From IMG/VR virus record IMGVR_UViG_2718218126_000001: a stretch of 38,732 bases of DNA, one strand, 5' to 3'. Positions 5,485 through 13,316 of the stretch are shown in pieces; position 1 is the first letter of the stretch; the number at the start of each line of letters is the position of its first letter. Below the pieces are notes generated by a model that worked only from the letters and a program-made list of their open reading frames with translations, was not told where the DNA came from and did not search any database. The translations under genes were made by a program, and so were the position numbers. The stretch is from a virus (taxonomy: Duplodnaviria; Heunggongvirae; Uroviricota; Caudoviricetes).

Positions 5485-5617
5485 TGGTCTTTCCTCATTA
5501 CAGGTCAGTGGTCTTTAGTAGGGGATTTCAACGGTATCTGGCGTGTATTCGATGCAAAGTAACTGAATCGCCCCGGGAATCCTGGAGACTAAACTCCTTG
5601 AGAGAGAGGTAAACAGG

Positions 5618-5944
5618 ATGACTAAAAATACGCGCTTTTCCCCTGAGGTCCGTCAGCGGGCCGTTCGTATGGTTATCGAAAGCCAGAATGACTATGACTC
5701 GCAGTGGGCGGCCATCAGCTCCATCGCCCCTAAAATCGGCTGTACGCCTGAGACCCTGCGTACCTGGCTGCGTCAGTATGAGCGCGATGCCGGTGCAGGT
5801 GACGGCGGACTGAGCACCACTGAACGTCAGCGTCTGAAGGAACTGGAGCGTGAAAACCGCGAACTGCGCCGCAGCAACGATATCCTGCGCCAGGCTTCCG
5901 CGTATTTTGCGAAGGCGGAGTTCGACCGCCTGTGGAAAAAATAG
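5618..5944 (+). CDS. IS3-family transposase OrfA (HTH)
   Basis: 108 aa [19 protein letters not shown]...[31 protein letters not shown]; leucine-zipper-like C-terminus typical of IS3 OrfA. Confidence 0.9.
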
Positions 5945-6831
5945 CGCCTCTGGTGGATACCCTGCGTGGTGCGCACGGGGTCGGACCGGTATGCCACGAG
6001 CTGGCTGTCGCCCCGTCAACGTATTACCGGCATCGTGCGCATCAACGGCATCCGGATAAACGCAGTCAGCGGGCACAGCGTGATGACCTGCTGAAGCCGG
6101 AGATACAGCGCGTGTACGATGAAAACCACAGCGTGTACGGTGTGCGCAAGGTCTGGCGCCAGTTGTTGCGTGAGGGGGTGACCGTGGCCAGGTGCACAGT
6201 AGAACGGCTGATGAAGGTGATGGGGCTTGCCGGTGTGCGCCGGGGTAAAAAGGTCCGCACCACAGTCAGCCGGAAAGAAGCCGCTGCGGGTGACCGGGTG
6301 AACCGCCAGTTCGTGGCAGAACGCCCCGACCAGCTGTGGGTGGCTGACTTCACGTATGTGAGCACCTGGCAGGGCTTCGCTTACGTGGCGTTCATCATCG
6401 ATGTGTTCGCCGGCGTCATTGTGGGCTGGCGGGTCTCATCGTCGATGAAAACGACGTTCGTGCTGGATGCACTGGAGCAGGCGCTGTGGGCCCGTCGCCC
6501 GTCGGGCACCATCCATCACTCAGATAAGGGGTCACAATATGTGTCGCTGGCATACACTCAGCGGCTTAAGGATGCAGAGTTGCTGGCGTCAACCGGCAGC
6601 ACAGGCGACTCATATGACAACGCGATGGCGGAGAGCATCAACGGACTTTATAAAGCGGAGGTGATACATCGTAAGAGCTGGAAAAACCGCGCCGAAGTGG
6701 AACTGGCCACACTGACGTGGGTGGACTGGTACAATAACCGACGGTTGCTGGAACGACTGGGTCATATCCCGCCGGCAGAAGCGGAAAAGGCATATTACGC
6801 TTCCATCGGAAATGGTGGTCTGGCAGCCTGA
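5932..6831 (+). CDS. IS3-family transposase OrfB (DDE catalytic domain), expressed as OrfAB by -1 frameshift in the A-run at 5936-5941
   Basis: 299 aa in the -1 frame relative to orfA, overlapping at TGGAAAAAATAG. Contains [18 protein letters not shown] and [15 protein letters not shown] motifs of the DDE core. Confidence 0.85.
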
Positions 6832-6873
6832 GTTCACAGATAAAACACTCTCCCGGAAAACCGGGGCGGTTCA

Positions 6874-7128
6874 AACGCGATGGCGGAGAGCATCAACGGA
6901 CTTTATAAAGCGGAGGTGATACATCGTAAGAGCTGGAAAAACCGCGCCGAAGTGGAACTGGCCACACTGACGTGGGTGGACTGGTACAATAACCGACGGT
7001 TGCTGGAACGACTGGGTCATATCCCGCCGGCAGAAGCGGAAAAGGCATATTACGCTTCCATCGGAAATGGTGGTCTGGCAGCCTGAGTTCACAGATAAAA
7101 CACTCTCCCGGAAAACCGGGGCGGTTCA
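6874..7128 (+). repeat. Tandem 255-bp duplicate of the IS right end (copy of 6619..6873), including a second right terminal repeat
   Basis: Exact repeat seen in sequence; ORF 6880..7086 duplicates the last 68 aa of OrfB. Most likely a remnant of a second IS copy after rearrangement. Confidence 0.85.
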
Positions 7129-7184
7129 GAAATGTCCGCTCTCTCATCCTCTGGACAGAATGCGGCGCAGCTCGCCATGCCAAA

Positions 7185-7688
7185 ATGCTGGAAACAGAAC
7201 AGGCCTGGGAAGTTTTCGAAAAGCTGGAAGATTGTTATTTTAGACAGCGTCCAGAGAGGCGGAGTACAACTACCGATGACCGTACTCCCTTACGTGATGC
7301 CGTTAATATGCTGGTCGGTAAGAAAGGCATGATGTATCCCGATGCCTACACCATGATTCATCAACGCTTCGCCGTCTCTCACATAGAACAACTGTCACAG
7401 ACGCAAATGTTAGAGGCGATTGAATACATCCACTGCCTGCTACTCGATGAAAATCAGCCAACCATTCCAGATTTTTCTTTTATCACCACTATCAAAAATG
7501 GAAAAGTGACCAGGATGCGCCATGTTGCCAAAGGCGAACATCTGATGACGTTTGACGCTTTCAAAGAGATCGCTGAGCGGGCAGGGTATCTGGTGATCCA
7601 CAGCGACAACCTGCGAAGTATGACGCTGGATAAATTGATGGTAATGGGGAAAAAGTCGGTTGTATCCGTTGCTGATTCAGCATTTTGA
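7185..7688 (+). CDS. Phage regulatory / antirepressor-like protein, probably 5'-truncated by the IS-associated rearrangement
   Basis: 167 aa from ATG 7185, but the same frame is open back to the IS end at 7129 with no upstream start. Functional assignment weak. Confidence 0.35.
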   Translation: MLETEQAWEVFEKLEDCYFRQRPERRSTTTDDRTPLRDAVNMLVGKKGMMYPDAYTMIHQRFAVSHIEQLSQTQMLEAIEYIHCLLLDENQPTIPDFSFITTIKNGKVTRMRHVAKGEHLMTFDAFKEIAERAGYLVIHSDNLRSMTLDKLMVMGKKSVVSVADSAF

Positions 7689-7720
7689 CAGGTTGAATGT
7701 TTGGCGCGGTTATACTCTAT

Positions 7721-7797
7721 TTGCGCTTAAAAAGGTATTTAGTCACAACCAGCACGAGGCCGAATACTCTGTCAAAGTACCGCCCATGTAAAACTGT
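7721..7797. repeat. Direct repeat copy A (~77 bp, ~93% identical to 11322..11398); decayed copy of the 3' end of the membrane-protein gene
   Basis: ttgcgcttaaaaaggtatttagtcacaaccagcacgaggccgaatac... versus copy B; 4 mismatches and a 1-bp deletion that breaks the reading frame. Confidence 0.8.
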
Positions 7798-7865
7798 TAC
7801 GTATGTACTTGATGACTAAGCTGGCACCAGGTTAACACCAGGCGCCAGCTTGAAGGAAACTTCAG

Positions 7866-8789
7866 TTATTGGTTTCTGAGGAAAGCGATTCTTGAAAGGG
7901 TCATTTGCGTCTGGCAGTCGACCATTTTCTTGACTTCAGCATCTGTTCCCTGCATTGAAACTTTACCGCACATAGCATCCTTAGTTTTGATCCACTGACG
8001 CTGAGAAGGCAGCAACTCTTTTTTCTTCGCCGGCGTTAACCTGCCCCAGACTGTATTCAAATCAGAGTCAGCATTCGCAAATGCCATTCGGGACTGATCA
8101 AGGCTTTCAGCTTTTTGCGGCTGAAGTTGTGCCTGCCTCTCTATTTGCTTCTCCGCCTCATACCTGGCCTGTTCCTGTGCCCTGAGTTGCACCTGTTGTT
8201 CCGCTTCAATTTGACTCTGTTGGGCATCCTTAGCCTGCTGGATTTTCTGCTGCTCAACGATCGGGTTGATAATGGAAAGCGATGTCAGTAAAGCGGCGCC
8301 CACTGATATCGGATTATCAGAAGAGGTTTTTACAAAAACGTTTTTCTGATCGTCGGTCGCCTGCACGGTGTAGGTGATACGTTTTGAAAAGGCGTTTGCG
8401 TTGTTCTCCAAAAACAGATTTTCCATTTGCTTATCGAGATTACGATTAAAATTCTTTCTGTAAGCATCAGAAAGCTGGACGTACTCGTTCGCAGGTAGAG
8501 TCATCGTCACGGTCCCTTCACAAGTTTTCATTGTGCTGCCCGTGTCACTTGATGTTGTGGAGATTTCAGAGACGGCTAGTTTGATCTTGTCCAGTGTGCT
8601 TCGTTTGGTCTGATTAGTGACATCAGGGTATTTATCGACCTGTTCAGAGAGTCCTTCATAAGCAGATTTTTTTAATAAATCCATGAGAGCTGATTGGGTC
8701 ATTTCCGAAGAACAACCGATCTCATCTTTTTTGTTATCACAGCCTGTAAGGGCAATGGCGAGTAAGAGTACTGAGTATTTTAATCTCAT
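7866..8789 (-). CDS. Lipoprotein with C-terminal DUF1311 (LprI-like lysozyme-inhibitor) domain, putative
   Basis: 307 aa; signal peptide plus lipobox LAIALTGC; Gln-rich coiled-coil middle; C-terminal ...DLNTVWGRL...QRQWIKTKDAMC...MVDCQTQMTLSRIAFL resembles DUF1311. Confidence 0.55.
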   Translation of the reverse strand: MRLKYSVLLLAIALTGCDNKKDEIGCSSEMTQSALMDLLKKSAYEGLSEQVDKYPDVTNQTKRSTLDKIKLAVSEISTTSSDTGSTMKTCEGTVTMTLPANEYVQLSDAYRKNFNRNLDKQMENLFLENNANAFSKRITYTVQATDDQKNVFVKTSSDNPISVGAALLTSLSIINPIVEQQKIQQAKDAQQSQIEAEQQVQLRAQEQARYEAEKQIERQAQLQPQKAESLDQSRMAFANADSDLNTVWGRLTPAKKKELLPSQRQWIKTKDAMCGKVSMQGTDAEVKKMVDCQTQMTLSRIAFLRNQ

Positions 8790-9415
8790 GAATTCCCTTT
8801 AGAGTAAGGATTGGTTTTTAAGACGCGGTCTGTAATCAGTTCCGAGAGCTACAGTAAACAACGCTGAGCACTGAACGCATCACAGGCAAGGTAAAAGGTG
8901 ATATCGGCAAAGGCTGTGAAACCTTTAATTCAACAGATGGGAACGGTATGCACAGGATCCTGTAACGACGCTCCCAAAACCGGAAACCTGTAAGGCATGT
9001 TTTCGCTGCTGAACTTAATATACGAACCTGCACTATCATGAACATATTTTATATCGTTATACCCCGAGTGATTGTGCCCGGCAATGGATAGTGTCCTGGA
9101 GGAACTATTTCTACTGTAAAAGGTAGACATTTAATTTCAGTGTGGAATTATTCCCTGCTGTTAATAACCATGGCTCTATATGGCACCGAGCGGACTAGTT
9201 AACTTGCCTGAAAGCCGCTATGAGTGAGGAGCGAATATTGGCACGATAGGATACCTGAACCATTTTTTGGACATGCGCTAAAAGCGAATGATTAGTTTTA
9301 TCGGAATATTTACAGTATACTTACAAGGCAAGCTTGGCGTACCGTCTTGGGCGAGATTGCTTAAATTATTTTGTGGATATATCATTCAAACAAAAGATAA
9401 TAAAATGAGGTTGTT

Positions 9416-9613
9416 ATGTCATATATTCGCGTAGAGAAAGATGGCCTTCAGTATGAAGCAGAATACTTCCGTGAAGAGGATATGGTCACAGTCTTTGGGG
9501 TTAGAGGAGGGCATTCCAGCGTGGTTCTAAATGGAATGACAGAAGTCGCGGCTGCTCGTACTGCGTTACGAAATCTTATTAGAGAAAATCAGGTTGATCC
9601 TCTAACTGATTAA
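9416..9613 (+). CDS. Hypothetical small protein (65 aa)
   Basis: RBS TGAGG 8 nt upstream of the ATG; AT-rich surroundings; no recognisable motif. Confidence 0.4.
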   Translation: MSYIRVEKDGLQYEAEYFREEDMVTVFGVRGGHSSVVLNGMTEVAAARTALRNLIRENQVDPLTD

Positions 9614-9817
9614 AAATAAGCCATCTTAACTGAGAGCATATTTTGATATAATTTAGATTAAATCTATTTTGAAGGTTAGTTTGGGATGAGAAGATTACAT
9701 CAAAACCGTTATTACTAGCAATAAGTTGTGTAAATCAAATAATACATAATCAGGTGGTAATATATACTAAGCGTAGTAAAGTTTTTATATATTCCTGTAA
9801 CTTTGTGAGAAACTTCC

Positions 9818-10483
9818 ATGAAAGCCGACAACTTAAGAATTATAGAGAATGGCAAATATGTTTTCGATATGTTCTTGGATACTGGTGAATTTTACTATAC
9901 AAGTCATGCCTTTGACACGAGAGAAGATGCAAAAAGCTGGATGGAAGAATGGCAGATTTGGGCAAATAATGTATCGAGTGGGAAAGTAAGTAGTATTTAT
10001 TATATTTTACAAGTGCCTGATACTTGGGCCGGTTCTTCAGATAAAAATAACCCTTACTCGGGACTTTATGTGAAAATAGGGCGTTCCAATAATGTGCTAA
10101 AAAGGTTGTCTAACCTGCAGACAGGTGCATTTGGTCAATTAATATTACACGCTTTGGAACCAGGTGGTTCAGAAAAAGAAAACTATCTTCATGAAAAATT
10201 TAGCAACGAAAGACGTCAAGGTGAATGGTTTGTTTGTACTAAGGAACTTACCAAGCATATATTTACAACATGGTTTAAAAACAAAATGCTCCCACCAGAA
10301 CATCAAATAAAAATAATGCAGCTCGCAGAAAGAATAGGTATTTATTCGCATGTTCATACACTAATGGGGGGGAAGCCAGACTTAGTAAACCCATCTATTA
10401 GTGAACCTTGGGAATGCGAAAAATATGTTTTGGTTGATATGATTTATAGCTCTTTAGCAAAGCAAGTTAATCATAAAAAATAA
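9818..10483 (+). CDS. T5orf172 / GIY-YIG-like domain protein (putative nuclease)
   Basis: 221 aa; SSIYYILQV...GLYVKIGRSNNVLKRLSNLQTG...EKENYLHEKFSNERRQGEWF matches the GIY...YIG...R...E pattern of T5orf172/MUG113 domains. Extended -10 TGaTATAAT upstream. Confidence 0.6.
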   Translation: MKADNLRIIENGKYVFDMFLDTGEFYYTSHAFDTREDAKSWMEEWQIWANNVSSGKVSSIYYILQVPDTWAGSSDKNNPYSGLYVKIGRSNNVLKRLSNLQTGAFGQLILHALEPGGSEKENYLHEKFSNERRQGEWFVCTKELTKHIFTTWFKNKMLPPEHQIKIMQLAERIGIYSHVHTLMGGKPDLVNPSISEPWECEKYVLVDMIYSSLAKQVNHKK

Positions 10484-10803
10484 AGTGTTACATTTTAACT
10501 ATACAATTATTGATTCACTAATGAAGAGGTGATTTAGACGTATGAAGTTTTAATAAGCTCCAAGAATATTTTGTCATACATGGGTTAAAGAGTTATATAA
10601 TAATATCTGCTTCTGGAACACAGCAGACAAGCACCTGCAGATAAAGGTCTGCTGAGAGCGAGAAGCGGATCATACGTTGGAAGTTGTTTAGGCAAATACG
10701 TTATAAACGTATTTGATTAAATTTACTTGGATCATAGTCTTCAATAACGCTTTATTATATTGTTTTTCATGCAGCAAACAGGTTCACAGGTAGGTAATAA
10801 GCT

Positions 10804-11208
10804 ATGAGTGGATGGAAAGAGCCTTTTACATTAGCAGAACAGATACAATTAGCATTAAATTTAGGTTATGAGGCTGTACCAGATGAAGAGGCATATACTG
10901 GGGCATACTTCATTAAAGGTGGTAAGAAGTGGATCTTTAACATCATCGGTCTCAAAAAGACATTGAATATATCTTCAGATGATGAACTAAGAGGGCAGGA
11001 TTATGATGTTGATATGTATTTCGAAATTCGCCAAAATTGGGCACAATACCAAGATATGATCTTTGGAAGCGAAGATATCACTCCTTCACCTAAAAATGAA
11101 CTTACTTCAATTTACCATGACCTGCAGGTAACGGATGAACCCAGGGAAATGGTGTATCTTTCTGATGGGATGTGGCTGGATCCCAACGGACGAATTGTAC
11201 AACGATAG
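10804..11208 (+). CDS. Hypothetical protein (134 aa)
   Basis: Own upstream region with palindromes (aaatacgt/acgtattt at ~10694-10715); no recognisable motif. Confidence 0.45.
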   Translation: MSGWKEPFTLAEQIQLALNLGYEAVPDEEAYTGAYFIKGGKKWIFNIIGLKKTLNISSDDELRGQDYDVDMYFEIRQNWAQYQDMIFGSEDITPSPKNELTSIYHDLQVTDEPREMVYLSDGMWLDPNGRIVQR

Positions 11209-11317
11209 CACTCGAACACACTCAGTAATCGTCTATAAGGCCAGCACTTGTTACTTGGTCATTTGGGGTTGCTGGTCTTCTCCATTAAATCGACTAAAGT
11301 CTGTTCCATAGAGAGAG

Positions 11318-11923
11318 TTACTTGCGTTTAAAAAGGTATTTTGTCACGACCAGCACGAGGCCGAATACCTCTGTCAAAGTACCGCCCATGTACAACTGTA
11401 GTGTTAAATCCTCAAATTCCAGCTTACCTGCGCCGTCGGCAATAAATACACCATTCATTATCAGAAGTTGGCAAGCAAGGATAATCAGGAACCATTTCCC
11501 GTATCGTTTTTTTAGAGCGATTTCTGCTTCAAAATCTTTGTTGTTGAGTTGTTTGCGCTCATGCTCGGTATCAAGTGAATTCACCTGTTTCACAGATGTG
11601 AACTCGGTCAAGATTTTACTCTCAGTACGGGTGACTTGTTGAGAGGGTGTAACAGTTGGAATTCTTTTGCTAGACGCAGCTACAGCCATTTTGCGAGCTT
11701 CGGCAGCTCTTTTTCTGGCTATTCCGCGAATACGGACAGCCGTTTTTTTGGGGGCGTGCGAAACCTTTGGCTGAGGTGAAGTTTCGTCAGGAGACTGAAC
11801 CGGGGTTTCATCGTCCCCCGGCTCAACCTCTTCTGCTAACTGACGGTGTAGGTTGAGGGAATCCTTCAGTCGGCGTGCAACTTCCTGTTTGAAACGGCTG
11901 TTAAAATCGTCATCCGATGGCAT
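11318..11923 (-). CDS. Membrane-anchored protein: hydrophilic basic N-terminal region, two predicted C-terminal TM helices
   Basis: 201 aa; WFLIILACQLLIMNGVFIADGAG and TLTEVFGLVLVVTKYLF hydrophobic segments. Starts 9 nt after the peptidase stop; last 25 codons lie inside direct repeat copy B. Confidence 0.55.
   Translation of the reverse strand: MPSDDDFNSRFKQEVARRLKDSLNLHRQLAEEVEPGDDETPVQSPDETSPQPKVSHAPKKTAVRIRGIARKRAAEARKMAVAASSKRIPTVTPSQQVTRTESKILTEFTSVKQVNSLDTEHERKQLNNKDFEAEIALKKRYGKWFLIILACQLLIMNGVFIADGAGKLEFEDLTLQLYMGGTLTEVFGLVLVVTKYLFKRK
11322..11398. repeat. Direct repeat copy B (~77 bp), coding the 3' end of the membrane-protein gene
   Basis: Matches 7721..7797 with 4 mismatches and 1 indel. 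Confidence 0.8.
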
Positions 11924-11932
11924 TCTAAAGCG

Positions 11933-12421
11933 TTACCCCAACCTCAAGTTCTTTAAACGATAAGTCATCGCATCGTCAGATACGCCAAAATAATGCGCCA
12001 TTATATAACTTGGTTGGCCGTCAGCGTGCAGTTTTCTGACCTCATCAACCGGCATCAGAAGTTCTGCTGCGAACTTGTTCGCAAAAATTTCATCAGGATG
12101 CGTTCCGGCGCTTGCGGTTTCGCCACGTAAATCAACGTACTCATATTCATCACTATGCGATGCTTGCCGGGCGATGTAATGCCCCAACTCATGCCCACAT
12201 GAAAAACGTTGACGAACTTTGTTGTCATCACTGTTTAGAAAGATCGCTGGATCTTGATCTTTTTGTTTAATCAGTGCGCCAGAAACTTTCCCAGGAAGAT
12301 CGGTAATAAAAACATCTAATCCCATGTCGTGAGCAATTTTCGCTGGATCAACAGGGAAACCACGCCCGCACCAGAACGTGTCCAGCACTCGCCGGGCGTG
12401 CTCTCTTGGGTTGGTAGCCAT
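11933..12421 (-). CDS. ImmA/IrrE-family (DUF955, M78-like) zinc metallopeptidase
   Basis: 162 aa; HEXXH as CGHELGHY and downstream DEIFANKFAAELLMP, the family signature. RBS GGAGG. No fused HTH domain. Confidence 0.7.
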   Translation of the reverse strand: MATNPREHARRVLDTFWCGRGFPVDPAKIAHDMGLDVFITDLPGKVSGALIKQKDQDPAIFLNSDDNKVRQRFSCGHELGHYIARQASHSDEYEYVDLRGETASAGTHPDEIFANKFAAELLMPVDEVRKLHADGQPSYIMAHYFGVSDDAMTYRLKNLRLG

Positions 12422-12510: not shown

Positions 12511-12750
12511 TTCTGGTACGATATTAACTGTTAGTAGTAAAGTCTTCCAGATAAATCACTTTAAAATCTTGTGAATTGCTTGCTTTTTACGCTGCATTGT
12601 GGATGGCTCAATGTTTCCAGTAAAAACATACATGATAATCATGACATTAGTGGTTTTTTAAGCGTCCATATGTTTCTTAAAAAAATGGATGCCACAAGAG
12701 GCCAGATGAGAACGGAAAGGGAAGGCTATTACATGTGTGATTTATTACAT

Positions 12751-12766
12751 CTGTAAAAAAATACAG
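12751..12766. promoter_or_regulatory. LexA-box-like CTGT-N8-ACAG motif (weaker match)
   Basis: ctgtaaaaaaatacag in the divergent intergenic region. Confidence 0.3.
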
Positions 12767-12855
12767 ATCTAACTTGATCTTTTCATTGAAGTTTTTCTTG
12801 GTCCTGGATAGGATCTGGAGGTTGCGAAGTTTTTAGAGTCGCATCAAAGGGAAAG

Positions 12856-12879
12856 CCCTGACAGCGCCAACTGTCAGGG
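12856..12879. other. Perfect 9-bp stem / 6-nt loop hairpin of unknown function
   Basis: ccctgacag-cgccaa-ctgtcaggg in a 540-bp non-coding region. Confidence 0.3.
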
Positions 12880-12988
12880 CCATACAAAAACATCGGTTAA
12901 TGCTTTCGTTGAGATCTCGGTTTGGGAGATTACCTCAACCGGGATCCCGTGTAAAGCATTCATTACCGAAAATGATATAGGTCAATGA

Positions 12989-13267
12989 ATGAAACACATC
13001 TGTAAAAAGTCACATCGTCACGACAGTATGTTTGATGTTCTTTCTGCAAATCAGGGTAACGTTGGGCGGCACAAGTGTTGTGGATGTGCCTATGATAAAG
13101 GTATGTGGCATGCATTAATCGGCGTTCCGCGTGCGGTTGATGACTCTGTTTTAGGTGATTTACCCGAAAGCCAGGCTGGGCATGTCCGTCATAAAGATGC
13201 TTTTGAAGCATATAATATGGGCTATGACCATGGGATGCATAAAAAAGCCTACGGTATGGCCTCATAA
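12989..13267 (+). CDS. Hypothetical Cys/His-rich small protein (92 aa)
   Basis: Followed immediately by a strong intrinsic terminator, which favours this strand over the overlapping minus-strand ORF. Function unknown. Confidence 0.4.
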   Translation: MKHICKKSHRHDSMFDVLSANQGNVGRHKCCGCAYDKGMWHALIGVPRAVDDSVLGDLPESQAGHVRHKDAFEAYNMGYDHGMHKKAYGMAS

Positions 13268-13288
13268 TCTGGTGCAAATGAATAACTA

Positions 13289-13316
13289 ACCCGCTTCGGC
13301 GGGTTTTCTTTTTTAT
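13289..13316 (+). terminator. Rho-independent terminator
   Basis: acccgc-ttcg-gcgggt stem-loop followed by tttcttttttat. Confidence 0.6.

Follow-up and report, generated by a model that had tools for sequence, protein, structure and literature searches.

A short conserved gene end and the exchange of accessory genes in a lambdoid prophage of Escherichia coli

Introduction

Why would a prophage carry the 3' end of one gene twice, on either side of a block of accessory genes? We interrogated this question in the virus record IMGVR_UViG_2718218126_000001 of IMG/VR (Caudoviricetes), whose whole stretch of 38,732 nucleotides (nt) is called the window here. The original prediction, made from the letters alone, had placed imperfect direct repeats at 7721-7797 (copy A) and 11322-11398 (copy B), about 93% identical and with a 1-bp deletion in copy A, around an AT-rich block that it attributed to recombination at the end of a membrane-protein gene. 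Comparison with related prophages leads us to an account that we consider probable as a whole, in which copy A would be the relic of a second allele of this gene and the gene ends would provide a short homology patch for general homologous recombination that shuffles the cargo.

Results

The repeat is the 3' end of a membrane-protein gene

Using MAFFT alignment and repeat finding, we delimited copy A to 7718-7797 (80 nt) and copy B to 11319-11399 (81 nt), both on the minus strand and about 3.6 kb apart. These limits fall within 3 nt of those predicted. The copies are identical at 75 of 81 aligned columns (92.6%), with five substitutions and one 1-bp gap, close to the predicted figures, and their similarity ends sharply at both edges. 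A 31-nt piece of the repeat has two matches in the window at up to two mismatches and none in 100 shuffles. Copy B was correctly placed on the end of the membrane-protein gene (11318-11923, minus strand; 201 amino acids (aa), profile match to phrog_5346), of which it holds, intact, two bases of the stop codon and the last 26 codons. Copy A, rightly recognized as a relic of the same gene's 3' end, carries the 1-bp deletion and lies 30 nt past the stop codon of an ORF6N-type gene and 68 nt ahead of the stop codon of the LprI lipoprotein gene.

The two copies are set in different flanks. Flank A (7689-7717) is a short stretch that separates copy A from the ORF6N stop codon. It represents the left side of an 'ORF6N-side' configuration and is kept left of copy A in the window, sequence type 131 (ST131), E24377A and L26 types, as well as left of the single copy in strain GPEC172. 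Flank B (11296-11318) is the native sequence downstream of the intact membrane-protein gene and is common to other variants; similarity to ST131-type prophages restarts at 11296. The homology spans about 80 nt because conservation in this gene family is strongest over the last 26-28 codons. Across 16 homologues from about ten genera, including Klebsiella, Enterobacter, Salmonella, Cronobacter and Serratia, the C-terminal 28 residues scarcely vary, although overall identity to the window protein is just 47-66%.

Copy A shows no secondary structure (z 0.22), and no Rfam family matches the repeat, the one sub-threshold chance match falling inside LprI. Repeat finding detected no inverted repeats in the window. 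Neither copy holds promoter-like or terminator-like sites, whose overall frequency is not above that in shuffles, and on these grounds a reading of the repeat as a regulatory element was rejected. The small RNA svsR, followed as a lead to a prophage non-coding element, lies in cI and is unrelated.

The coding strand of the repeat holds GCTGGTCG (11346-11353, minus strand) and copy A has GCTGGTTG (7745-7752), a stretch that agrees with the Chi octamer GCTGGTGG at seven of eight positions, by resemblance only. The repeat is also matched by a type I-E spacer from clustered regularly interspaced short palindromic repeats (CRISPR) in strains JX21CE8 and 23CRST031, exactly in copy B (11336-11367; AAG protospacer adjacent motif (PAM)) and with two mismatches in copy A (7735-7766). 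The adjoining spacer in JX21CE8 is exact to the neighboring ImmA gene (12182-12213; ATG PAM). A CRISPR spacer of E. coli strain 222 matches the first LprI codons (8757-8788) at 32 of 32 positions by eye, preceded by ATG, and this match is also found in other listed genomes, roughly a hundred as estimated from the difference of two genome searches.

Origin of copy A

When copy A is translated in the gene frame, its departures from copy B are five silent changes (GTC>GTT, ACA>ACT, AAA>AAG, AAG>AAA and TAA>TAG), one L>F change and the 1-bp deletion. The frame had been thought destroyed by deletion and substitutions together; the deletion alone breaks it, and five of the six substitutions are silent. 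Assuming that about a quarter of random substitutions are silent, we calculate a probability of about 0.005 for at least five of six. In ST131-type prophages, copy A has no deletion, is in frame and reads LFYMGGTLTEVFGLVLVVVKYLFKRK up to its stop, with a further stop codon immediately 5' of that stretch. Two distinct copy A alleles exist in different lineages. Divergence between the copies is 6-11%, and that between the window-type and ST131-type prophage backbones is about 2-3%.

The excess of silent changes indicates that the copies diverged while both stood in working genes, and hence that copy A is the cut-off end of another allele. On this pattern, copy A is the truncated relic of a second, once-functional allele of the membrane-protein gene and not a duplicate decayed in place, as had been supposed.

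A fixed inner module and a variable outer slot

The prediction treated the 3.5 kb between the copies as one insertion. Alignment to ST131-type prophages separates it into two layers: the window is 96.7% identical to them over 7136-9190, unrelated over 9191-11295 and 97.8% identical from 11296, 23 nt before copy B. Copy A, LprI and about 400 nt upstream of it (7718 to ~9190) are 95-99% identical in every lineage that has LprI, and only 9191-11295 is exchanged, extending in some lineages to ~13195-13296. The left breakpoint, mapped by BLAST and alignment to ~9185-9235, is ragged and recurs in four variants, including the E24377A, HCP5S3_I2 and TUM11352 types. The block is therefore a fixed inner LprI module next to a variable outer slot. 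Its base composition follows the same division, with a GC fraction of 0.31-0.42 at ~9200-11200, about 0.45-0.50 on either side and 0.41-0.49 in the LprI part (7800-8800), so that the AT-richness claimed for the whole 3.5 kb holds for the right half and not for the LprI part.

The inner module is built around the gene for LprI (7866-8789, minus strand), a 307-aa lipoprotein with a lipobox (LTGC) and a C-terminal DUF1311 domain (PF07007, E 5e-8; phrog_5094, E 5e-184). LprI is 95-99% identical in the ST131, E24377A, HCP5S3_I2 and E. whittamii variants. Upstream lies a conserved non-coding stretch (8790-9190, from BLAST breakpoints and alignment). Just downstream of the LprI stop codon is a strong stem-loop (7819-7850, minus strand; -28.2 kcal/mol, z -5.06, with none of 200 shuffles folding as well). 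It sits in the junction that is always next to copy A, has no T-run and so escaped the terminator scan, and is probably the LprI terminator.

The outer slot (9191-11295, plus strand) holds one of at least eight alternative cargos. As the prediction anticipated, related prophages carry different cargo at the same position, and what they show is not a single repeat copy beside cargo conserved as core genes. Eight sets were found between the ORF6N/LprI genes and the membrane-protein/ImmA genes, or the next conserved gene, and those other than the window's own are as follows. ST131-type prophages encode a 232-aa membrane protein. E24377A and L26 carry a 186-aa open reading frame (ORF), an HNH protein, PD-T4-3 and a 459-aa ORF, a set that also replaces the membrane-protein and ImmA genes. 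HCP5S3_I2 has a 196-aa ORF and a GmrSD_N protein, and E. coli GF131 and E. whittamii have PDC-M25 A/B. An IMG/VR contig without LprI encodes a DUF6650 protein and PD-T4-3; another IMG/VR contig encodes a 450-aa ORF, an SMEK protein, a methyltransferase and a membrane protein; and TUM11352 has a rearranged set.

Several of these cargos have recognized anti-phage matches, namely PD-T4-3 (E 6e-138), PDC-M25 A/B (E 9e-157 and 4e-96) and the GmrSD_N/NsnA-like protein (E 5e-41). PD-T4-3, which occupies the slot in E24377A-type relatives, was reportedly described in a study by Vassallo. This variety of cargo at one position indicates a hotspot for accessory and defence genes. The ST131 type accounts for most of the 411 genomes in which flank B with copy B is 95-99% identical to the window (95.2% among the matches listed). 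Across 453 matching genomes there are 884 matching places and never more than two per genome, giving 431 genomes with two places and 22 with one.

Mobile elements have also left marks in this region. In FXCREC028, an IS1 insertion sequence (IS) joins the LprI upstream region directly to tail genes, which amounts to a large deletion (L007 7940-8780), and in Z0117EC0036 an IS1 lies inside a window-type cassette. In E. whittamii and GF131, the C-terminal end of ORF6N is replaced by a fragment of about 220 nt (L009 reverse complement ~1711-1930; L044 5052-5231). This fragment matches the ends of InsQ/TnpB elements of the IS200/IS605 family, which are found in about 4,900 E. coli genomes. The left junction of the PDC-M25 cassette is therefore formed by an IS-end fragment.

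Natural recombinants at the repeat

The proposal that recombination at the gene end moves cargo is borne out by two natural arrangements. GPEC172 is the sole genome among 5,426 complete E. coli genomes in which ORF6N abuts the membrane-protein gene with a single repeat copy between them. This copy is a hybrid whose left part has the ST131 copy-A variants and whose right part has those of copy B. Compared with the ST131 type, the left 3,656 nt are 99.945% identical and the right 4,182 nt are 99.857% identical, and the stretch shared by both alignments is precisely the 78-nt repeat. A reading of this arrangement as an ancestral empty site was rejected: its hybrid copy, its close match to the flanks of the ST131 type and its uniqueness together point to a deletion by crossover between copy A and copy B. 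Pattern scans of viral and metagenome contigs returned no configuration like that of GPEC172.

The reciprocal hybrid is found in E. whittamii. There, flank B and copy-B variants are found on the left side of the copy that lies left of LprI; the right side bears copy-A variants, the deletion among them, and an extra PDC-M25 A/B cassette is stacked upstream of this copy. Such stacking predicts a parent that lacks LprI, has a single repeat copy and carries PDC-M25 directly downstream of an intact membrane-protein gene. E. coli GF131 matches this prediction, with the order ORF6N', PDC-M25, flank B, one repeat copy, membrane-protein gene and ImmA, and no LprI.

All four combinations of left and right flanks are found in genomes, viral or metagenome contigs. 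Flank A joins the gene body in GPEC172 and the LprI junction at copy A of the window; flank B joins the gene body at copy B of the window and the LprI junction in E. whittamii, HCP5S3_I2 and metagenome contig L058. The crossover intervals differ and do not overlap, lying at repeat positions ~11-25 in E. whittamii and ~43-70 in GPEC172.

Other 3'-end relics mark cassette junctions elsewhere in these sequences (L002 6930-7001; L018 8620-8740; L058 1396-1700; L014 13040-13125). Flank B of the ST131, GF131 and E. whittamii types contains the last ~60-90 nt of an 85-aa ORF and a GC-rich hairpin, and this ORF is intact in HCP5S3_I2 and in contig L058. In one viral contig, only the last ~15 nt of LprI are left after copy A. 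These further relics suggest that junction scars are common in this region.

The cassette of the window

The predicted gene calls for the block, a DUF1311 lipoprotein, a 65-aa ORF, a T5orf172 protein and a 134-aa ORF, were all correct. Within the slot, the 65-aa ORF (9416-9613) and the 134-aa ORF (10804-11208) have no family match, and the gene between them (9818-10483) encodes a T5orf172/MUG113 GIY-YIG protein (PF13455 MUG113, E 6e-10; PF10544 T5orf172, E 4e-7). The cassette (9191-11295) is present in 17 of the 5,426 complete E. coli genomes, always at this position and in one copy, and also occurs beside divergent alleles of the membrane-protein gene (91.5% and 94% protein identity).

The 65-aa ORF and T5orf172 gene as a pair are 86% identical over 1,392 nt of DNA to a different island on an Enterobacter-type contig. 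Enterobacter cloacae has a homologue of the T5orf172 protein beside a PARIS-like pair, and Vibrio has one within an integron-like array; an island with YfjJ, YfjT and DUF932 genes also holds a homologue. In the phage collection, the protein has distant matches only, which cover part of its length, and no significant PDB match came from sequence searches with this protein, with LprI or with the 134-aa ORF. From these contexts, the three genes would fit an accessory or defence cassette.

The membrane protein and its peptidase partner

The membrane-protein gene is the downstream operon partner of a gene for a 162-aa ImmA/IrrE-type M78 metallopeptidase with an HELGH motif (11933-12421, minus strand; PF06114, E 8e-18; PADLOC capP, E 2e-25). 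It follows a 162-aa M78 peptidase gene in all contexts examined, and the pair is kept in Klebsiella, Salmonella and E. coli. The M78 domain and HEXXH motif are common to this gene and the ImmR/ImmA and CapH/CapP systems. Those systems pair the peptidase with an XRE repressor, whereas no helix-turn-helix repressor adjoins the M78 gene here, and the protein conserved beside it has two hydrophobic segments and lacks any Pfam domain. In the phage collection, there is one DNA match, limited to ImmA, and the membrane protein has no protein match.

In loci L034-L041, from Klebsiella, Salmonella and another E. coli prophage type, the pair stands at the very end of a prophage or remnant, next to chromosomal genes, convergent with the integrase gene and outside the nin-like region. 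This placement at prophage ends suggests that the M78/membrane-protein pair is itself a mobile two-gene module.

Prophage setting

The window contains a lambdoid prophage adjoining a tRNA-Ser(CGA) gene (892-981), which we take to be serU, with an integrase gene at 1067-2095; the predicted placement at a tRNA-Ser gene thus held. The sequence of the window has 100% identity to that of E. coli E62 from 7127 onwards. Relatives that are intact carry the block with the replicative helicase genes on one side and the DUF1367, DUF1364 and Q genes on the other, a location equivalent to the nin region of lambda.

The conserved left neighbor of the block is the 3' part (167 aa; 7185-7688, plus strand) of an ORF6N/anti-repressor-like gene (phrog_4792 anti-repressor, E 7e-103), which is intact in E62 (264 aa, PF10543 ORF6N) and whose 5' end is cut off by an IS in the window. 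This IS3-family element of about 1.3 kb lies within 5566-7128, with orfA at 5618-5944, orfB at 5932-6831 and an rve domain. Its right end (6619-6873) is repeated perfectly in tandem at 6874-7128 (255 nt), a repeat that may be genuine or may have come from the assembly. The immunity and replication region of E62 and L26, about 8 kb long (cI-like, cro, YdaT, RepO, helicase and other genes), is wholly missing, and this loss suggests that the prophage copy in the window is defective.

A second small variable segment lies beyond ImmA (12684-13287). The window has a 92-aa ORF there (phrog_3941, 12989-13267), ST131-type prophages have an unrelated 77-aa (234-nt) ORF on the minus strand, and similarity resumes at 13288.

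Discussion

Our results suggest the following history for the locus. A second allele of the membrane-protein gene would have been cut about 26 codons before its stop when a segment bearing LprI joined there, probably by illegitimate or unequal crossover between two related, collinear lambdoid phages, with the incoming arm carrying its own intact peptidase and membrane-protein pair. Conservation of the gene end would have preserved about 90% identity between the relic and the intact end, which are 3.6 kb apart. The two copies, together with their counterparts in co-resident relatives, would then offer a homology patch to RecA or a phage recombinase acting in homeologous recombination, and crossovers within it may delete the block, stack an extra cassette or re-pair the left and right flanks.

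Several points weigh against this account. The founding event was not observed, and no genome was found with a full-length allele ancestral to copy A. For the GPEC172 event, the direction does not follow from the sequence pattern by itself, and only parsimony favors deletion, as the arrangement is seen in one genome nested in the ST131 lineage. The left arm of E. whittamii is 95.2% identical to GF131, which makes GF131 the parent type and not the actual parent, and the mapping of crossover intervals covers just two products, the deletion in GPEC172 and the hybrid in E. whittamii. The window yielded no recombinase of the Red, RecT or Erf type; its 738-aa early gene has no Pfam match, and the genes for immunity and replication are gone from this prophage copy. 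As for a defence role, the PADLOC matches of the window cassette are borderline (E ~0.004).

Simple duplication in place might also account for the direct repeats that flank the block: arriving cargo would have duplicated a target of about 80 bp in the gene end, and copy A would then have decayed neutrally, in keeping with its frameshift in the window. We regard this as unlikely, given that the silent substitutions and the in-frame copy A of the ST131 type bespeak purifying selection before truncation, that the copies differ more than the window and ST131 backbones do, that copy A exists as two alleles in different lineages and that neither inverted repeats nor a transposase gene flank the block. 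Insertion of the block by a transposon or IS was rejected as well, on the absence of inverted repeats, the differences between the 80-bp copies and the lack of a transposase gene in 7798-11318. A homing event is another candidate, since the T5orf172 protein has a domain of the GIY-YIG superfamily and its homologues occupy variable regions of several kinds of mobile element. The endonuclease would cut cassette-free prophages near the gene end, and repair of the break would copy the cassette in and leave a rearranged end. Yet copy A and its junction are shared with lineages that carry other cargos and no T5orf172 gene, the cassette is confined to a single site and copy in few genomes, and break repair alone makes no direct repeat, all of which renders homing very improbable.

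The four flank combinations, which correspond to attB, attP, attL and attR, and the restoration of the gene end by one copy would likewise be expected if the repeats were attL/attR-like sites at which a dedicated recombinase moves the cassette and rebuilds the 3' end of its target gene. But the eight cargo sets are all free of integrase and recombinase genes, no cargo protein has a recombinase domain, and the only integrase is the prophage's own. Moreover, the two mapped crossover intervals do not coincide, the repeat is unstructured and without an Rfam match, and the breakpoints of the commonest exchanges among relatives, ~9190 and 11296, lie outside the repeat, so that we give site-specific movement very little credence. 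An integron cassette with attC sites was rejected for want of inverted repeats in the window, of structure or an Rfam match in the repeat, and of an IntI gene.

General homologous recombination at a relic gene end, our preferred explanation, invokes no new mechanism: the structure is that of a prophage accessory/defence hotspot with homology-mediated exchange. It is a well-documented natural case in which a short conserved gene end enables the loss, gain and stacking of accessory cassettes among related prophages, and its value lies in the completeness of the recombinant series, since the parental type and both kinds of product are in public genomes. The slot belongs to an E. coli prophage family that is widespread and includes the prophage of most sampled ST131 genomes, and validated or candidate defence genes alternate in it with uncharacterized ones, which are reasonable candidates for an anti-phage role. 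A bolder proposal, tentative and in our judgment rather doubtful, is that the near-invariant gene end is a recurrent anchor for cassette capture in an undescribed lambdoid defence slot, a coding analogue of the T4 repeats discussed below, and that the uncharacterized cargos are new anti-phage systems. If true, these would comprise the 65-aa ORF and T5orf172 pair, the 232-aa membrane protein of ST131 and the peptidase/membrane-protein pair. A non-exhaustive literature search found no description of this locus.

Its closest likenesses are nonetheless to systems already known. In T4-type phages, short boundary repeats, the promoter and stem-loop units called PeSLs, allow homologous recombination to insert, delete or replace genes that are not essential, and circles can be looped out in the process (Arbiol et al. 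2010, PMC2839356). A like logic runs through the two kinds of product described here, deletion and stacking. PeSLs, however, are non-coding and number many per genome, whereas the present repeat is a coding 3' end without a promoter-like site or structure of its own, at most two copies of which occur per prophage. Elements that integrate at the 3' ends of genes are similarly bounded by direct repeats (attL/attR), one completing the gene and the other a non-functional end; they rely on an integrase and a fixed crossover, in contrast to a block with no integrase, variable crossovers and copies that differ by 6-11%.

Hotspots of defence genes in prophages and satellites are established (PMC9122126; bioRxiv 10.1101/2022.05.12.491691), and the P2 and P4 loci likewise hold differing anti-phage systems at a fixed position (Rousset et al. 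2022; Vassallo et al. 2022). The present slot differs from those loci in lying between the replication genes and Q, a nin-like position, of a lambdoid prophage at a tRNA-Ser gene. Its exchanges most resemble homeologous mosaicism in lambdoid phages (Martinsohn, Radman & Petit 2008, PMC2327257; De Paepe et al. 2014, PMC3945230), in which partners diverging by several per cent recombine, lambda Red being efficient on sequences that differ by 22% (PMC2327257), and hybrid junctions fall in short conserved stretches amid unrelated DNA. Those studies are experiments or general genome scans; here a single locus presents natural arrangements of both the reactant and the product type.

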